Source: a virus. From it: DNA of 64,000 nucleotides. Position 1 is the stretch's first letter; each line of letters begins with the position of its first letter. A program made the translations under genes and the position numbers. This document shows, one piece after another, positions 2,685 through 64,000 of the stretch. The notes under the pieces are model-generated. The model worked only from the letters and a program-made list of their open reading frames with translations, was not told the origin of the DNA and ran no database searches. Location of the stretch: IMG/VR virus record IMGVR_UViG_3300020045_005677, positions 64,413-128,412 of that record; one strand, 5' to 3'.

Positions 2685-3947
2685 ATGGTAAATGGATTAG
2701 GAAGATTAGGAAACTTAGTAGCTGGATTAGAAGGTGAAGATGTTGTTGTAACTCAAGATGTTGATGGTACATCATTATTAGAAGAAGTAGCAACAGGTAG
2801 CGAATTAGCTGCACAAACTGAAGAAATCAATGATATCGTTTCTGATGTTACTGAATTAGAAGAAGTTCAAGCTGCTGTTGAAGATGAATTAGAAGCTATT
2901 GAATGTGTTGACCAACCATTATTAGAAACTGGTACTGAATCAGATTTTAAAGTGGCTTTAGCATTTATGCAAGCTAACAACAAAAAATTAGCAAAAAGAT
3001 TAAACTTAGGTGCTAGTGCTTTAAGAACTTCTGGATTAGAATCTAATCACGGTGGATACAAAGATGCATTTAGAGCTGCATTAGAAGAAAAAGAAAGCTT
3101 ACTAAAAAGAATTCAAGCAACTGCTTCTGCAACTTGGGAAAAAATCTTAATGTTCATTAAGAAAAAAATTCAAGAGATTGGTTTATACTTTAATAAACAA
3201 GAAAAAACTGCTGATAAAATTTTAGTTGAATTAGAAAAAAGAACAAATACATTAGCTGAAGGTGCTTTCTTAACTGATGCTGATAAATCTTCAATTGGTT
3301 CTAAATTTGGTGCTTATTTAGTTTTAGGAGAAGGTGCTGCTGTTGAAAAATATGCTGATAACTATTCTAAATTATTTAATTCTCCAGTTGTTCCAGCTGC
3401 AGGTAAAAAATTAGAGGACAACTTCTCTATTAAAGCAAATGCAGCAGTAAATGCTTTCATCTCTTCTCAACTTGGTTCAGATGCAAATGTTAAAGATTTC
3501 AATGTTGCTACTGTTGCTATCAATGGTAAATCAGTTGTATTAGCTTTAGCTTCTAAAAATCTTGAAAAAGCTGATTCAGTTACTGCTGAAGAAAAAGTTA
3601 CATTCAAAACTGTTACTTATAAAGTAGCTGATGTTGATGTTGAAAAAGTTACGTCTGCTTTAAAAGACATTCCATCTATGGATGCATTAACTACTTTTGC
3701 TAAAAGAGCAAAAGAAATGGCTAAAGGTATTGATACTGTAGCTAAAGAAAACTATGCAAATGCTGAGTCTTATGCTAAAGCTATTAAAACTGCTAAAGAA
3801 AGCAACGTTAACTTAGTTAAAGTTTATGGTAACATTTCTGGTGGTGTTCAAACTGCTACGTTACAATCTGTATCTGGTATGACAAATTGTATTGCTAACT
3901 TAAACTGGTTAGCTTCACACTTCTCTGCTAAATACAAAACAAAATAA
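2685..3947 (+). CDS. Inner-body/ejection protein, phiKZ_IP-like family
   Basis: 420 aa; acidic propeptide with AGLE and SGLE sites, then WEKILMFIKK helix; Ala-rich with codon usage like the MCP gene. Confidence 0.7.
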   Translation: MVNGLGRLGNLVAGLEGEDVVVTQDVDGTSLLEEVATGSELAAQTEEINDIVSDVTELEEVQAAVEDELEAIECVDQPLLETGTESDFKVALAFMQANNKKLAKRLNLGASALRTSGLESNHGGYKDAFRAALEEKESLLKRIQATASATWEKILMFIKKKIQEIGLYFNKQEKTADKILVELEKRTNTLAEGAFLTDADKSSIGSKFGAYLVLGEGAAVEKYADNYSKLFNSPVVPAAGKKLEDNFSIKANAAVNAFISSQLGSDANVKDFNVATVAINGKSVVLALASKNLEKADSVTAEEKVTFKTVTYKVADVDVEKVTSALKDIPSMDALTTFAKRAKEMAKGIDTVAKENYANAESYAKAIKTAKESNVNLVKVYGNISGGVQTATLQSVSGMTNCIANLNWLASHFSAKYKTK

Positions 3948-3967
3948 TCTTTAAATAGATAATTTAC

Positions 3968-4002
3968 AAAAAGCTCTATTCTTAACTGGATAGAGCTTTT
4001 TT
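3968..4002 (+). terminator. Intrinsic terminator-like hairpin
   Basis: AAAAAGCTCTAT/ATAGAGCTTTTT with T-tract. Confidence 0.75.
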
Positions 4003-4056
4003 CCTATTTTGCCGTTCTTTTGATTTTAGTAGGACAACATTAAAAGGAAGAAATAA

Positions 4057-39525: not shown

Positions 39526-41835
39526 ATGATTAATATTATAATACGAGAACAATCATTTAGAATAAAGTTAAATAATCAGTTATTGAGTAATAACAACAAT
39601 ATGGATAAGTACTATAATATTATAGAAAACTATACTAGTAAATTCTTGTCTTATACTTATGTATACAATAAACAAAAAGGTAGAAACGTACCTATAGTAG
39701 ATAAAAAATACTTTAGTAAGAAAACAACTGATGATGAAGTAGAATATATCTTTAACATTAGTTCATTTAGAGACTTCTTAATGCATTGTAGATTTAGGGG
39801 TATTGATATACAAGATACTAAAGAATTTAATATTGTTATTAAGCATAATACTCCTCTTAAAGCTAATCTAAAAGTAAGAGGTATGTATAAATTAAGAGAC
39901 TACCAAGATAAGTATGTAAATACTATAGTAGATAACAATATGAATAAAGCATTAATAGTATTACAGACTGGTAGAGGTAAAATGAATCCATTGGATACTA
40001 GAATTAGAATACCTGATGGATGGAAATTAATGGGAGATATTAGAGTAGGTGATAAAGTAATATCTAGAGATGGTACTACTACTATTGTAAATGGAGTATT
40101 TCCTCATGGATTACAAGATATCTATAAGATTACATTTGCTGATGGTAGAACTTCAGAATGTGGATTGGAACATCTATGGAATGTATATCATCCAGATTTT
40201 ATTAATGATAATAGTAAAGGCTTTAGAACTATAGATACTGCTACATTATTAGAAAGAATGAATAGTGATAAACTAGATAGTGATTTACACTTTATAGACC
40301 TAGTAGTATCTGAAAAGAATAGTCCTAAGAAATATGATATGTATCCTTTTAAGTTTGGTAAATCTATGGGTGGATATGATAGAATTCCACAAGAATATCT
40401 AAATGGTTCAACAGAGCAAAGATATAAGTTACTAGAAGGAATATTAGTTAATAGTTTTCCCGATAGAAATAGTGGATTAATTATCTATAGAAGCTTTAGT
40501 AAAGATTTAATATTAGATATACAATTATTAGTTAGGTCATTAGGTGGATTAGCATTAATGTATGAAGTTACTAGATTTAATAATGTAAAAACATTATATG
40601 GTCTAAGAATTGATAAGAGTAGGCTAGAAGGTAAACTTAAATTAAAGATTACTAATATAGAGCATATTGGTAAAAAAGAAGCACAGTGTATCTCTGTAGC
40701 TCATCCTGAGCAATTATATGTAGTAGATGATTATGTAGTAACACATAATACATTAATAGCATTAGCTACAGCTGCTAAAAGAAAATTAAAGACTGCCATA
40801 GTATTGCCAGGATATATAGAAAAATGGCAATCAGATGTGACTACAGTATTAGAATTAGAAGATAAAGATATCTACACTATTCAAGGAGCTGATAGTATAG
40901 ACTTAATTATTCGAAAGATACAATTAAATATACAGATGAAAGAAGTGGTATTTCTAATAGGTACTGCTACGTTTATGAGATATGTTAAAAAATATCAAGA
41001 AGATAGAAGTGGTGATATAATGCATCCAGCTGAAGTATTGGATTATTTAGGAATAGGTACAGTATTAGCAGATGAGATACATGAAAAGTTCTTTGCTACT
41101 TACACTACTATGTTATTTCTTAATCCTAAAACATTTGTAGGAATGACAGCTACATTTACTTCTAGTAATAATTATATTAAGAAATTCCAAGATATGATAT
41201 TTGAAGACAATACTAAATTAAACTTTATAGAAATTAATAAGTATATTAACACTATAGGTATTAACTATAAATTAGAAAATCCTAGGTCAGCTAAATATTT
41301 ATTAAGAGCTATGTATAATCATGACACTTATGAGAATAGTACCATATTGGGAAATAGAAGTAGATTAATTAATTTTATAGAGATGTTAAAATATTATATT
41401 ACTACTGAACATTTTGATGATGAGTTTAAACCTAAAGATAAATTAATTATATTTGTATCATCAATTAGGTTTGCTACATTATTAACTCTTAACTTATCTA
41501 GAGAATATAAACATCTAGATGTGCGTAGATATGTAGCTGATGATAGTTATGAAAATATATTAGAATCAGATATTATTATATCTACATTAGGTAGTGCTGG
41601 TACAGCATTGGACATACCTAATCTTAAAACAGTATTTAATACTGTAGTAGTAAAATCAGAAGTATCTAACAAGCAGAGTCATGGTAGATTAAGAGAAAGA
41701 AGTAATACTGTTAAGTATTTATATTTCTATAGTAAAAACATAGATAAGCATGTAACGTTTGAAAAAGTAAGAGAAGAGCAAATTAGACCATACAGTAAGA
41801 GTTATACATATCTTACATATCACAAGCAGATATAG
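39526..41835 (+). CDS. SF2 (DEAD/DEAH-like) helicase, phiKZ gp75-like, intein-containing
   Basis: Q motif LRDYQ, Walker A QTGRGK/T split by an intein, DEIH, GMTAT, motif VI QSHGRLRE. Confidence 0.9.
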   Translation: MINIIIREQSFRIKLNNQLLSNNNNMDKYYNIIENYTSKFLSYTYVYNKQKGRNVPIVDKKYFSKKTTDDEVEYIFNISSFRDFLMHCRFRGIDIQDTKEFNIVIKHNTPLKANLKVRGMYKLRDYQDKYVNTIVDNNMNKALIVLQTGRGKMNPLDTRIRIPDGWKLMGDIRVGDKVISRDGTTTIVNGVFPHGLQDIYKITFADGRTSECGLEHLWNVYHPDFINDNSKGFRTIDTATLLERMNSDKLDSDLHFIDLVVSEKNSPKKYDMYPFKFGKSMGGYDRIPQEYLNGSTEQRYKLLEGILVNSFPDRNSGLIIYRSFSKDLILDIQLLVRSLGGLALMYEVTRFNNVKTLYGLRIDKSRLEGKLKLKITNIEHIGKKEAQCISVAHPEQLYVVDDYVVTHNTLIALATAAKRKLKTAIVLPGYIEKWQSDVTTVLELEDKDIYTIQGADSIDLIIRKIQLNIQMKEVVFLIGTATFMRYVKKYQEDRSGDIMHPAEVLDYLGIGTVLADEIHEKFFATYTTMLFLNPKTFVGMTATFTSSNNYIKKFQDMIFEDNTKLNFIEINKYINTIGINYKLENPRSAKYLLRAMYNHDTYENSTILGNRSRLINFIEMLKYYITTEHFDDEFKPKDKLIIFVSSIRFATLLTLNLSREYKHLDVRRYVADDSYENILESDIIISTLGSAGTALDIPNLKTVFNTVVVKSEVSNKQSHGRLRERSNTVKYLYFYSKNIDKHVTFEKVREEQIRPYSKSYTYLTYHKQI
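39982..40749 (+). mobile_element. 256-aa class 3 intein with degenerate LAGLIDADG endonuclease remnant
   Basis: Inserted between K and T of the P-loop; starts MNPLDT; block B EHLW, block F EAQCISV, ends VVTHN/T (W-C-T triplet). Confidence 0.9.
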
Positions 41836-60534: not shown

Positions 60535-60606
60535 ATGGATATAGAATGCTTGTTAACAAGAGAATTGTTAAGAGAAATTAATGAATATCTCAATGAGGCA
60601 GAATGA
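60535..60606 (+). CDS. 23-aa mini-ORF
   Basis: AGGAG RBS; MDIECLLTRELLREINEYLNEAE; stop overlaps the next ATG (ATGA). Confidence 0.45.
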   Translation: MDIECLLTRELLREINEYLNEAE

Positions 60607-61295
60607 TGACTACAATGGATTTTAATTTAAAAAAAGAAATTTTCGAAGAAATTGCGAGATTGGATTTTTCTTATCGGACATGGTTAGAGAGCAGAGGAAG
60701 TCGTCACGCAGATGTACTTCTTAAGCATATCAGCGAGGACTTATATGTTGGTCTTGAAGCTGATGAAGATGGATATGTATTACTTACTGATGAGAATAAT
60801 GCAGTAGTAATTCCTAGATTGGTTAGAAAAATTAAAGAGGATGGCTCAGATATTATTATTAGTGCTGAAATCCTACAGGCGTATTCTAGTTGCCGTATTA
60901 CTGTTAGAAAAAATGATTTTACTATTTATCATGGCGATATGTACAATATGCTAACAAGTATGATGAAAGAGACTACAGTATTGGATGGTTTTAATATACC
61001 AATGGATAAATCAGGATTAGTAGAATTAAGATGCTCTTTAATTTCTACTCCAGTAGCTTTAACATTAACTATTAAAAAAGAAGTGTTAAATTCTATAGAA
61101 GAAAAAATATTAAACAATATATTAAAAAAGATAAAACAATTTTGTAAATTGTATTCTTTTAAAATGGTAAAGAGTGATGTTGATAATGTAATTAATATTA
61201 TTTACGATAGTGAAGATATTAATATAATATCTAAAAATATAATAGATGAGTTTTTAAATAAACCAATTGAAGATATAGCACCAGGAGATGAATAA
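60603..61295 (+). CDS. Accessory protein, paralog of the 61551 ORF
   Basis: 230 aa; C-terminal LTLTIKKEVL...IKQFCK similar to LELTVLKETL...ISKFAE. Confidence 0.6.
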   Translation: MMTTMDFNLKKEIFEEIARLDFSYRTWLESRGSRHADVLLKHISEDLYVGLEADEDGYVLLTDENNAVVIPRLVRKIKEDGSDIIISAEILQAYSSCRITVRKNDFTIYHGDMYNMLTSMMKETTVLDGFNIPMDKSGLVELRCSLISTPVALTLTIKKEVLNSIEEKILNNILKKIKQFCKLYSFKMVKSDVDNVINIIYDSEDINIISKNIIDEFLNKPIEDIAPGDE

Positions 61296-61550: not shown

Positions 61551-62273
61551 ATGTTAAACGAAACAGCAATAGATTTAATTATAGATGATACTATAAAAAA
61601 AATTAAAGAAATATTGCCAAGTGAAGTAGTATTTAAAAGTAGAACAGAAAAAGGATTTATGGCATTATACGATTCTATAGACAGCTTAATTTTTGAGTTC
61701 TTATTTATCAAGATAGTAGAAAATAAAATAGAAATGGATTTTAATATTAGTTTATTGTTTACAATGGAAAATCAAGATAAAAAATTCATTAATAAAAAAC
61801 TATTTAGAGAATCTATAGAAAAAAATAGTAATAATGATTTTTTATCTATCGACTATAAAGAATCTACTAATAAAAATATATATTATACTATTACACAAAA
61901 TCTAAATGATTACACAATATATCATTTAGATTTTTATAATAGGTTAAATAAATCTTTTAGTACTGCTACAGCCATGCAGCCATTTTCTTTTCTTATAGAT
62001 GAAACTAAATTAATTACATTAAGTTTTGATTTAATTAACAGAAAACACTGTTTAGAGCTAACGGTATTAAAAGAGACACTAACTGATTTTGAAAGCAAAA
62101 CTCTGTCATCAATCCTTTGTCATATATCTAAATTTGCTGAAGAGAGTAATTTAAAATTAGTTCAAAAACGAGATAGTTTAATAATATATATTCTTAGCAA
62201 AAAAGAACAATTAGTAACTATAGACTCTACTGGTGTAATAGTTAAGACACTAGCTAAAATAAATAAAGGATAA
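61551..62273 (+). CDS. Accessory protein, paralog of the 60603 ORF
   Basis: 240 aa; shared C-terminal segment. Confidence 0.6.
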   Translation: MLNETAIDLIIDDTIKKIKEILPSEVVFKSRTEKGFMALYDSIDSLIFEFLFIKIVENKIEMDFNISLLFTMENQDKKFINKKLFRESIEKNSNNDFLSIDYKESTNKNIYYTITQNLNDYTIYHLDFYNRLNKSFSTATAMQPFSFLIDETKLITLSFDLINRKHCLELTVLKETLTDFESKTLSSILCHISKFAEESNLKLVQKRDSLIIYILSKKEQLVTIDSTGVIVKTLAKINKG

Positions 62274-62278
62274 AAGAA

Positions 62279-62842
62279 ATGAGTAATGCTAAACAAAATA
62301 TGACTGGTAAGATTATATATATACATGATGATATTGTAGATATAAAGTTTTATGGATATATACCAAGTTCTAACGAAACTATTGATATATTATTAGCTAA
62401 TGGACACACTGAAAGAGCAAAGGTGGTAGTAACTGTACGGAATGTATGTAGGGTTAAAACTACTAATGCTAAAGATTTAATTATTGGACAAGAGTGTGTT
62501 GCTACTGGTAAAACTATTATAGAAGAGAAAGATATGGATGATGAGGATGATACTACTATAATTACAATTAAATGTGTAATTGAAAATATGAGAAATCAAG
62601 TAGATAGTCTAAATAAAAGCATAGATAGTTTAGAAAACATATTAAGAAGGAAAAGTAGTAAAGTAGAGAAAGAATTTACTATGGGTATGTTTAGAAAGAT
62701 GGGTGCTGAAAGAGGATTCGAGCATGCTAAACCATTTCCTTCTTTTGGTACAACGTATGCTGAAAAAATAGATGATGATAATCCTACTCTTAATTTAAAC
62801 CTTGGTCCAGATACTACAAAAGATGAAACAGGTAATAATTAA
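62279..62842 (+). CDS. Protein with F1 ATP synthase beta-subunit-like N-terminal beta-barrel fused to acidic linker and coiled coil
   Basis: aa 8-81 MTGKII..IVDIKFYGYIP..NETIDILLA..RVKT..L..GQECVATG match the recalled AtpD N-terminal pattern; no P-loop. Confidence 0.7.
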   Translation: MSNAKQNMTGKIIYIHDDIVDIKFYGYIPSSNETIDILLANGHTERAKVVVTVRNVCRVKTTNAKDLIIGQECVATGKTIIEEKDMDDEDDTTIITIKCVIENMRNQVDSLNKSIDSLENILRRKSSKVEKEFTMGMFRKMGAERGFEHAKPFPSFGTTYAEKIDDDNPTLNLNLGPDTTKDETGNN

Positions 62843-63288
62843 TGAGTAATGAATTTAATACAAATTATGATGGTGTATTTGCCAAGGCTACTACTGGGAG
62901 CATTAAAGTAAATACTATTATTAAAAGAAGAGAATCAGATGTCGATTATGATAACTGTACAAAAAAGTTAAATAAATTTATTACTAATGAACTAAATGGA
63001 CTTAATTATAAATGCTTATTATTAATTCCAAAAGATAATATAGCTCCTCATCCAGACTTACCTAATGAAGCAGAAATAGAAACAGTATCTACGGTTGAGC
63101 AAGTAGCTGAAATAATTGCTAGTAAATTCTTGCTTGAAATATATATTAGAAATATTGAAAAGTTAGAATATGATAAAACTAAGTATGTATCTGTAGAGGA
63201 AAATATATACGACTTAGTAAAAGAACAAATATTATATGGAGAGAATCGTACATTTTGTTTTAGTAAAGTGGTAAAAGAAACTATATAG
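62842..63288 (+). CDS. Hypothetical protein
   Basis: 148 aa, TAATG overlap. Confidence 0.6.
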   Translation: MSNEFNTNYDGVFAKATTGSIKVNTIIKRRESDVDYDNCTKKLNKFITNELNGLNYKCLLLIPKDNIAPHPDLPNEAEIETVSTVEQVAEIIASKFLLEIYIRNIEKLEYDKTKYVSVEENIYDLVKEQILYGENRTFCFSKVVKETI

Positions 63289-63326: not shown

Positions 63327-64000
63327 TTATTTTTCTTCGTTATCTTCTTCTGTTTTGGGCTTAGTAGCATCTTCTGCTTCATTACCTTTATCCTCTTCTA
63401 TATTGTCTTCCACTATTTCTTCTTTAGTTTCAGGCACCTCTTCTTCATTTTCTTTAGGAGTTTCTTGTGTAGGTTCTGCTTCTTCATTAGTAGGTGTTTC
63501 TATTTCAGTAGGTTCTGCTTCTCCAAATGGATTAGCTTCTTCTTCTGTCGTATCAGTAGGATTGTTATTATTTCCAAGTCCATTATCTCCACCAGTATTA
63601 TCCTCTTCACTACCACTATTATTAATAATCTCTTCTACTTTAGCATTCTCTTTATTAATCTCTATATTATCTTTAGCCATTTCTTTTCTAGATTGTAATA
63701 GACTATTAGCAATTGCTTTCATAAAGATAGAATAATCTTTAAATGGATTACTGATAGCATCACCATCATTATTTAAAGTAAACATATCTACTATGTTAGA
63801 CATGTAGTTATTATTTCTTAAATAATCCATAGTAGCTGAAAACTTCATCATTTTGATTACATCATCTTTACTAGCATTTAATTCTCCTAGTCCTAGTTCT
63901 ATAATTGTTTCATCAGATACTATTGAATCTAATACGTTAGCTAAGTTAGTTTTAAAGTTATCAAACTGAGTAGCTTGATTAGTATCTTCAGTTACATCAG
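63327..64000 (-). CDS. C-terminal part of a large protein entering from the right edge, probable portal (phiKZ gp129-like)
   Basis: Frame open from 63998 (49 codons upstream of the track's ATG); DYLRNNNYM then a long acidic tail; minus-strand position after the gp123-like gene fits the phiKZ portal. Confidence 0.5.
   Translation of the reverse strand, partial: DVTEDTNQATQFDNFKTNLANVLDSIVSDETIIELGLGELNASKDDVIKMMKFSATMDYLRNNNYMSNIVDMFTLNNDGDAISNPFKDYSIFMKAIANSLLQSRKEMAKDNIEINKENAKVEEIINNSGSEEDNTGGDNGLGNNNNPTDTTEEEANPFGEAEPTEIETPTNEEAEPTQETPKENEEEVPETKEEIVEDNIEEDKGNEAEDATKPKTEEDNEEK

Follow-up and report, generated by a model that had tools for sequence, protein, structure and literature searches.

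The window analyzed here is a stretch of 64,000 nucleotides that forms the 3' half (G000:C1:64413-128412) of an IMG/VR virus record of 128,412 bp, for which CheckV gave a completeness of approximately 48%. The record is that of an uncultured, deep-branching phiKZ-like jumbo phage. It carries multisubunit RNA polymerase beta genes in split form (phrog_3295, E 1e-127, and phrog_3015, E 7e-118), together with a major head protein of the phiKZ type (phrog_3231) that shows 22-25% identity to those of Noxifer, RP12, Eowyn and similar phages. The GC content of the phage is 27.5%, and the likely host family is the Arcobacteraceae, that is, Arcobacter-like bacteria.

The gene under study encodes a protein of 187 amino acids, referred to as P0001, whose parts are listed in Table 1 together with those of the related loci. 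An earlier note, made from the sequence alone, had described this open reading frame as a phage protein built on the N-terminal barrel of the ATP synthase beta subunit (AtpD). The reading frame was present on the plus strand, and its translation was exactly as quoted there. A Shine-Dalgarno sequence, AAGGA, lies 8 nt upstream of the first ATG, while the alignment with AtpD begins at M8 of P0001. Because of this Shine-Dalgarno sequence, and because the leader ahead of M8 is identical across all three members of the family, translation probably starts from M1.

Table 1. Features of the barrel gene, its downstream neighbor and the second barrel gene; positions are those of the window, except in the last row
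Feature	Position	Strand	Basis
Whole barrel gene, P0001, 187 aa: leader, beta-type crown barrel, acidic linker, heptad helix, conserved tail	62279..62842	+	ORF list, translation
Seven-residue leader MSNAKQN, ahead of the Met equivalent to AtpD Met1	62279..62299	+	7/7 identical in three family members
Beta-type F1 crown barrel (ATP-synt_ab_N), aa 8-81	62300..62521	+	phmmer, PF02874, PDB matches, tree, AF2/Foldseek
Acidic linker EEKDMDDEDDT, aa 82-92	62522..62554	+	translation; low pLDDT; 33-50% identity among relatives
Long helix, probable coiled coil, aa ~93-140	62555..62698	+	AF2 helix; heptad pattern read from sequence
Conserved C-terminal tail, aa 149-187	62723..62839	+	three-sequence alignment; low pLDDT
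Downstream gene, 148 aa; its ATG overlaps the barrel-gene stop (TAATG)	62842..63288	+	sequence; BLASTP
P0005, 258 aa, with C-terminal alpha-type crown barrel	G000:C1:4405-5181 (= L083:976-1752)	+	PF02874 search, PDB phmmer, BLASTP

The acidic linker and the coiled coil that the note had read behind the barrel were both there, the latter as a heptad helix that spans residues 93-135 in the AF2 model of the relative P0002 (pLDDT 69-88). In P0001, about four clean heptads could be assigned, with I94, I101, V108, I115 and L122 at position a and I97, M104, L111 and L118 at position d, and the core of the helix shows 76-84% identity among the relatives. The description of the C-terminus as a low-complexity tail turned out to be wrong. 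Residues 149-187 are strongly conserved, with 76-95% identity among the relatives; P0001 is identical to either relative at 29 of the 38 positions compared (76%), and the motif KPFPSFGT...KIDDD..PT..LN..PD.TKDET.NN is invariant in the three members. The low pLDDT of this tail in the AF2 model suggests that it is probably not a folded domain; it is probably a docking motif.

The nucleotide-binding domain is missing, as the note had stated: only AtpD residues 1-77 align, and the remainder of P0001 consists of the linker, the helix and the tail, to which no Pfam family could be assigned. Compared with AtpD, the phage protein has neither the P-loop domain nor the C-terminal helical (DELSEED) domain that a functional F1 beta subunit possesses, and it carries the seven-residue leader before the barrel and the linker, coiled coil and tail after it. 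P0001 is thus no ATPase subunit and is non-enzymatic. Among the PHROGs, P0001 had weak coiled-coil-type matches only. A single-sequence AF2 prediction of P0001 gave a poor model (pLDDT 45), and a fold search against BFVD returned only matches of high rmsd and low TM score that were driven by unstructured parts, with no comparable structure among them.

Upstream of the barrel gene lie two genes of 230 and 240 amino acids (60603-61295 and 61551-62273, both on the plus strand) that form a paralogous pair (34% identity over 108 aa, E 2e-14) and could be assigned to no Pfam or PHROG family; the end of the second gene is 6 nt ahead of the barrel gene. On the other side, a minus-strand gene at 63327-63998 runs off the end of the record, convergent with the barrel gene cluster. 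Of its product, a virion structural protein (phrog_3004, E 3e-8), the record contains the C-terminal part, which bears a long low-complexity tail of acidic character, rich in Glu, Asn and Thr. Elsewhere in the window, the plus-strand gene at 39526-41835 encodes a helicase-like protein of 769 amino acids with split PHROG matches to helicase loader, DNA helicase and terminase/primase P-loop regions, which fits an insertion in the P-loop region.

A beta-type crown barrel and its donor

A phmmer search with P0001 against 1.84 billion representative proteins found three sequences: P0001 itself, P0002 and P0003. The match to P0003 (E 1.1e-4) aligned residues 8-78 of the query with residues 1-75 of the target. 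P0003 is a partial sequence of a true Arcobacteraceae AtpD, with a PF02874 score of 66.6 bits and 84% identity to a protein of an Arcobacteraceae MAG. In pairwise BLASTP comparisons with P0003, P0001 showed 38% identity (E 4e-13) and P0002 showed 47% (E 5e-20), and both alignments started from AtpD Met1. Conversely, a tblastn search of the phage record with Arcobacteraceae AtpD recovered residues 1-77 (E 9e-10). A word-indexed protein search with P0001 returned only the query. In the Pfam comparison, P0001 gave no match even at E<=10, whether taken whole or as residues 8-81 alone, whereas its relative P0002 scored 25.5 bits against PF02874 (cut-off 20.9) over profile positions 1-69 of 69.

Searches of the PDB with a profile of P0001 and P0002 and with P0002 alone retrieved 30 and 46 sequences, respectively, up to E 1. 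All of the matches at E<=0.1 were F1 beta subunits aligned in their N-terminal region, the best for the two-sequence profile being 2qe7_D (E 1.2e-5). No alpha, V-type, FliI or Rho chain was among the PDB matches of either search. The N-terminal barrel of FliI, the type III secretion ATPase, belongs to the same Pfam clan, in which this type of barrel is a ring-forming, partner-binding module; unlike a FliI barrel, the phage domain thus matched F1 beta chains exclusively. In the AF2 model of P0002, residues 9-80 had pLDDT values of 86-95. Foldseek returned 247 matches at E<=0.001, and the top PDB matches were all F1 beta N-terminal barrels (rmsd 2.2-3.8 over 73-81 columns); the input alignment for this model consisted of the phage proteins and Campylobacterota AtpD barrels, and the model confirms the homology but not independently of it. 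Residues 8-81 are a beta-type and not an alpha-type crown barrel.

To place the barrel among its cellular counterparts, we compared it with 80 atpD loci from many phyla. All three phage barrels (P0001, P0002 and P0004) had their highest scores with the AtpD of Arcobacteraceae, followed by other Campylobacterota, and their lowest with other phyla. In the maximum likelihood tree, they formed a single clade with high support (100/99) that was nested within the AtpD of Arcobacteraceae (100/94 and 99/88); the stem leading to it measured 1.17 substitutions per site. The phage barrels also share two characters specific to Arcobacteraceae, namely a loop that is one residue shorter and the motif GQEC, in place of which other Campylobacterota AtpD have GQEV or GMDA. 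Judged from these sequence comparisons, the beta barrel is shown to stem from one capture from an Arcobacteraceae atpD, beginning at its exact start codon, followed by fast evolution.

These results bear on several points of the earlier note. Its assignment of residues 8-81 to the AtpD barrel was borne out by phmmer, BLASTP, tblastn and the profile search of the PDB, and Campylobacterota AtpD, predicted there as the top BLAST hits, were indeed found in the form of Arcobacteraceae AtpD (phmmer E 1.1e-4; BLASTP E 4e-13). The GQEC motif quoted there is real and specific to Arcobacteraceae AtpD. The proposal of a captured domain of Arcobacter type agrees with the nested position of the phage clade and with the shared loop and motif. 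The suggested Pfam check succeeded in part, since it failed for P0001 alone at E<=10 and passed the cut-off for P0002.

The homology between the phage barrel and that of Arcobacteraceae AtpD extends across the entire domain, from Met1 to the ...TG.PI boundary, and both form a six-strand barrel (AF2, Foldseek). The two have diverged strongly in sequence: the identity of the phage beta barrels to those of Arcobacteraceae is 34-45%, whereas Arcobacteraceae beta barrels are 83-88% identical among themselves. When host-invariant positions were defined as those conserved at >=90% in Campylobacterota, the phage beta barrels were found to keep 14-21 of 40 (19-26 altered). In addition, the phage lacks 3 residues of the conserved H(I/L)GD hairpin, and the segment IAMDMTEGL has been lost.

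Mosaic relatives and an alpha-type barrel in the same record

The family is tiny and known from metagenomes only. Our sample comprised three beta-type sequences (P0001, P0002 and P0004) and two alpha-type sequences (P0005 and P0006). P0002, from the Logan assemblies, has 494 amino acids and is 62% identical to P0001 over the whole query (E 7e-55); the third member, P0004 (497 aa), was found in the same assemblies with the N-terminal region of P0002. Both of these proteins continue in frame into two further modules of approximately 155 amino acids each. In the window, the 148-aa product of the downstream gene showed 27% identity over 139 aa to residues 340-476 of P0002, that is, to its second module (BLASTP, E 2e-6), and had no Pfam or PHROG family. 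The barrel protein and the downstream module, fused in the relatives, are here split but probably translationally coupled, and the split in the window as against the fusion in the relatives ties the barrel protein to this module. Searches of the ESM Atlas with the C-terminal modules and with the N-terminal domain of P0005 gave nothing usable.

The three beta-type members also revealed mosaicism. P0004 combines a barrel of the P0001 type (86.5% identity) with a C-terminal part of the P0002 type (95%), while the barrel of P0002 is only 51-54% identical to those of P0001 and P0004 despite a leader identical at 7 of 7 positions. Between P0001 and P0002, the barrel is the most variable folded part (54% identity vs. 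76% for the coil and tail). This mosaic of barrel types shows that recombination has exchanged barrels between otherwise nearly identical phages. Viral contigs were searched for relatives with P0002, family alignment A2, alignment A6 and the major head protein, and none were found; among metagenome contigs, the sole yield was an ordinary high-GC atpG-atpD operon (L082). In two sequencing runs, short contigs cover the upstream gene at 61551-62273, and none of them cover the barrel gene; no RNA run among the sequencing runs listed carries the locus.

A PF02874 search of the whole record gave a sub-threshold match (16.8 bits, E 0.001) outside the window, at G000:C1:4930-5130. This match lies in the gene for P0005 (Table 1), whose PF02874 scores of 14-17 bits are under the cut-off. 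A phmmer search of the PDB with residues ~173-253 of P0005 gave approximately 50 matches, all of them alpha subunits aligned over alpha residues ~26-101 (best E 2.3e-6), and BLASTP aligned P0005 with residues 18-103 of Arcobacteraceae AtpA (34% identity, E 2e-9). On these alignments, the C-terminal ~80 residues of P0005 are shown to represent an alpha-type F1 crown barrel. The alignment leaves out most of the N-terminal helix by which alpha binds delta (residues 1-17), and no family could be assigned to the N-terminal 150 amino acids of P0005. Five proteins of an Arcobacteraceae operon (delta, alpha, gamma, beta and epsilon) were also used as tblastn queries against the 128-kb record. Only AtpA residues 18-103 and AtpD residues 1-77 were recovered, and no further F1 piece was found with these five proteins.

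The divergence of the alpha barrel resembles that of its counterpart. The phage alpha barrels are 29-32% identical to those of Arcobacteraceae, vs. 72-84% for Arcobacteraceae alpha barrels among themselves; they keep 14-16 of 35 host-invariant positions and have two 2-residue insertions. In the alpha-barrel tree, the phage clade sits on a branch of 2.0 substitutions per site and is drawn towards other long branches, a position that points to no particular donor. By score, Arcobacteraceae ranked first by a slight margin, and the phage shares an S-C-K signature specific to that family. P0006, a Logan relative of P0005, is 61% identical to it, a distance similar to that between P0001 and P0002 (62%), and few stretches are better conserved between the two than the second half of the alpha barrel. 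The two barrel genes are approximately 122 kb apart in the record and have unrelated neighbors. The P0005 gene likewise follows two paralogs (L083:140-976 and G000:C1:2664-3572; 35% identity), and these are unrelated to the pair upstream of the barrel gene in the window.

Possible roles of the two barrels

In rotary ATPases, alpha-type and beta-type N-terminal barrels alternate, bind side by side and hold the hexamer together. The crown barrels of V1 A3B3 form a strong, self-contained interface that holds the ring, and a single mutation at a barrel contact loosens it (PMC6353620). Like the alpha3beta3 or A3B3 crown, the phage has both kinds of barrel, in one beta-type and one alpha-type gene; in contrast to the crown, its barrels, known here from sequence, are detached from the ATPase domains and joined to phage-specific domains. 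Since the phage keeps just two domains that bind each other, their simplest use would be on each other. We infer that the beta barrel of P0001 and the alpha barrel of P0005 pair as a phage-owned hetero-oligomerization clip and not as a decoy for the host enzyme, a reading to which we give a probability of approximately 0.4; P0005 is the likely partner of P0001. Under this scenario, the beta barrel would bind the alpha barrel and thereby join the phage-specific N-terminal domain of P0005 to the coiled coil, the tail and the downstream (in the relatives, fused) module of P0001, and the assembled form might be a dimer of heterodimers or a crown-like ring. Such a complex is incapable of ATP hydrolysis.

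Two further observations fit the pairing of the barrels. First, both have lost approximately half of the host-invariant residues, as would be allowed to partners that need to fit only each other and are free to drift. Second, both genes have Logan relatives at equal divergence (62% and 61%), in agreement with one kin lineage that keeps both. Against the pairing, the distance of ~122 kb and the unrelated neighbors provide no operon-level link between the two genes. In addition, the heptads, with I or V at a and L or M at d, would seem to suit a dimer better than a three-fold crown ring, and the strong divergence would fit just as well if the barrels had ceased to bind any F1-like partner. A complex prediction with two Arcobacteraceae AtpA crown domains and the phage beta barrel, run without controls, scored 0.00, which speaks neither for nor against binding.

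An alternative is that the fold was co-opted without any F1-like partnership, which we regard as doubtful, although it ranks slightly ahead of the other alternatives. The barrels would then serve as stable small beta-barrels, for instance as part of the virion, the inner body or another phage assembly or as binders of an unrelated target, and they would derive from a single capture that took in part of the atp operon or from two neutral captures. The very strong divergence from the donors argues for this possibility, as do the position of the genes, far apart among unrelated clusters of lineage-specific paralogs, and the virion structural gene (phrog_3004) that adjoins the beta-barrel locus. 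That the beta barrel is the most variable folded part of its protein (54% vs. 76%) and is swapped by recombination points in the same direction. Nevertheless, this scenario requires a coincidence, namely that the only two host-derived F1 pieces found in the record happen to be binding partners in the donor complex. Moreover, both barrels have been kept in the relatives at ~61-62% identity, and few parts of P0005 are better conserved than its alpha barrel.

The earlier note had proposed that the captured domain is a decoy for the host F1. In an extended form of this hypothesis, the beta barrel attaches to host alpha subunits that are not yet assembled and the alpha barrel of the phage attaches to host beta, so that assembly of alpha3beta3 is poisoned or rewired, or phage domains are tethered to it, and the ATP level, the proton motive force or the timing of lysis is altered. 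We consider this unlikely. In its favor, the beta barrel derives from the AtpD of the likely host family, the GC content of 27.5% fits the Arcobacteraceae, and crown contacts matter for the integrity of the ring (PMC6353620). However, the barrels of the host are highly conserved, and a mimic of a conserved host surface should stay close to its model, whereas the phage copies have lost approximately half of the host-invariant positions. With a 3-residue deletion in beta, two 2-residue insertions in alpha and stems of 1.2 and 2.0 substitutions per site, this divergence makes a decoy less likely. The presence of an alpha barrel of the phage's own, the natural partner of its beta barrel, also makes a decoy less likely than the earlier note had assumed. 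In addition, a lone barrel is a small part of the alpha/beta interface and, as deduced from the textbook structure, should compete poorly with full-length beta, and most of the delta-binding helix of alpha (residues 1-17) is unaligned in P0005.

Natural protein inhibitors of F1 also allow a comparison with the proposed decoy. IF1, the C-terminal helices of epsilon and the zeta protein of Paracoccus act at catalytic interfaces or on the gamma subunit and not at the crown, and we know of none among them that is derived from an alpha or beta subunit. P0001 is likewise a small protein with a long helix, and no similarity between it and IF1, epsilon or zeta was found (no Pfam family at E<=10).

A variant in which the matched pair acts as a two-sided dominant negative appears less probable still. 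In that case, the beta barrel would cap free host alpha and the alpha barrel free host beta, which would block new F1 heads or drag phage domains onto them. The capture of exactly the two assembly domains, and nothing else, would suit this as well, but two barrels made together would tend to neutralize one another. Finally, a fortuitous similarity or a non-functional, decaying remnant of host DNA, to which the lack of a Pfam match for P0001 alone and the tiny, metagenome-only family might point, is highly improbable given the E value of 1.1e-4 in a search of 1.84 billion proteins, a relative over the Pfam cut-off, PDB matches that are all beta subunits with end-to-end alignment, an open frame in which the hydrophobic pattern of the barrel is kept in three sequences down to 51% identity, the conserved leader, coil and tail, and the AF2 barrel pLDDT of 86-95.

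If the barrels still bind each other, a virus reuses a hetero-oligomerization interface of its host as a portable protein clip, and an orthogonal alpha/beta barrel pair of this kind would be of interest to protein engineers. If they bind host subunits instead, P0001 and P0005 would represent the first phage factor aimed at the assembly of ATP synthase, by mimicry of subunit domains, and would bear on how jumbo phages control the energy supply of their hosts. Under either reading, the two proteins form a small, directly testable system. The fast divergence of the beta barrel and its recombinational swapping between nearly identical phages need explaining in any case.

Crown barrels in other phage records

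To our knowledge, F1 crown barrels have been described in no other context than that of rotary ATPase subunits. The domain belongs to a known Pfam family; orphan alpha and beta crown barrels in a virus are new. Both types have been excised from a host enzyme precisely at the domain borders and now form part of phage proteins that are otherwise unrelated. The earlier note knew of no described phage protein of this design and suggested a search of other phages for the fusion. In agreement with it, we found no description of a phage protein with an ATP synthase crown domain in the literature, and tblastn searches with P0001, P0002 and P0005 gave no match among 50,697 phage genomes. In addition, no PHROG family matched a native alpha or beta crown barrel.

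Native barrels used as queries against the phage genomes gave matches in 14 and 18 'phage' records, in nearly all of which atpA and atpD are ~2.4 kb apart. These records were rejected as a source of orphan barrels because the operon spacing indicates whole host operons in contaminated or mislabeled records. The genomes of Campylobacter phages A11a (MG065691) and A18a (MG065686), each of 174 kb, contain atpA-like and atpD-like stretches at operon spacing; their scores equal those of Escherichia and Salmonella records, which suggests that these stretches are enterobacterial DNA within the assemblies and not genes of the phages.

A separate case was observed in a high-GC record (L084, IMGVR_UViG_3300049728_000110), which a search of viral contigs with alignment A5 had returned. 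In a reading frame of 220 amino acids at 3373-4035 of this record, a nearly native AtpD barrel (PF02874, 64 bits, aa 6-72) runs in frame into the latter half of an AAA_22 ATPase domain (53 bits). This gene is unrelated to the P0001 family and may represent a capture, an insertion junction or an assembly chimera.
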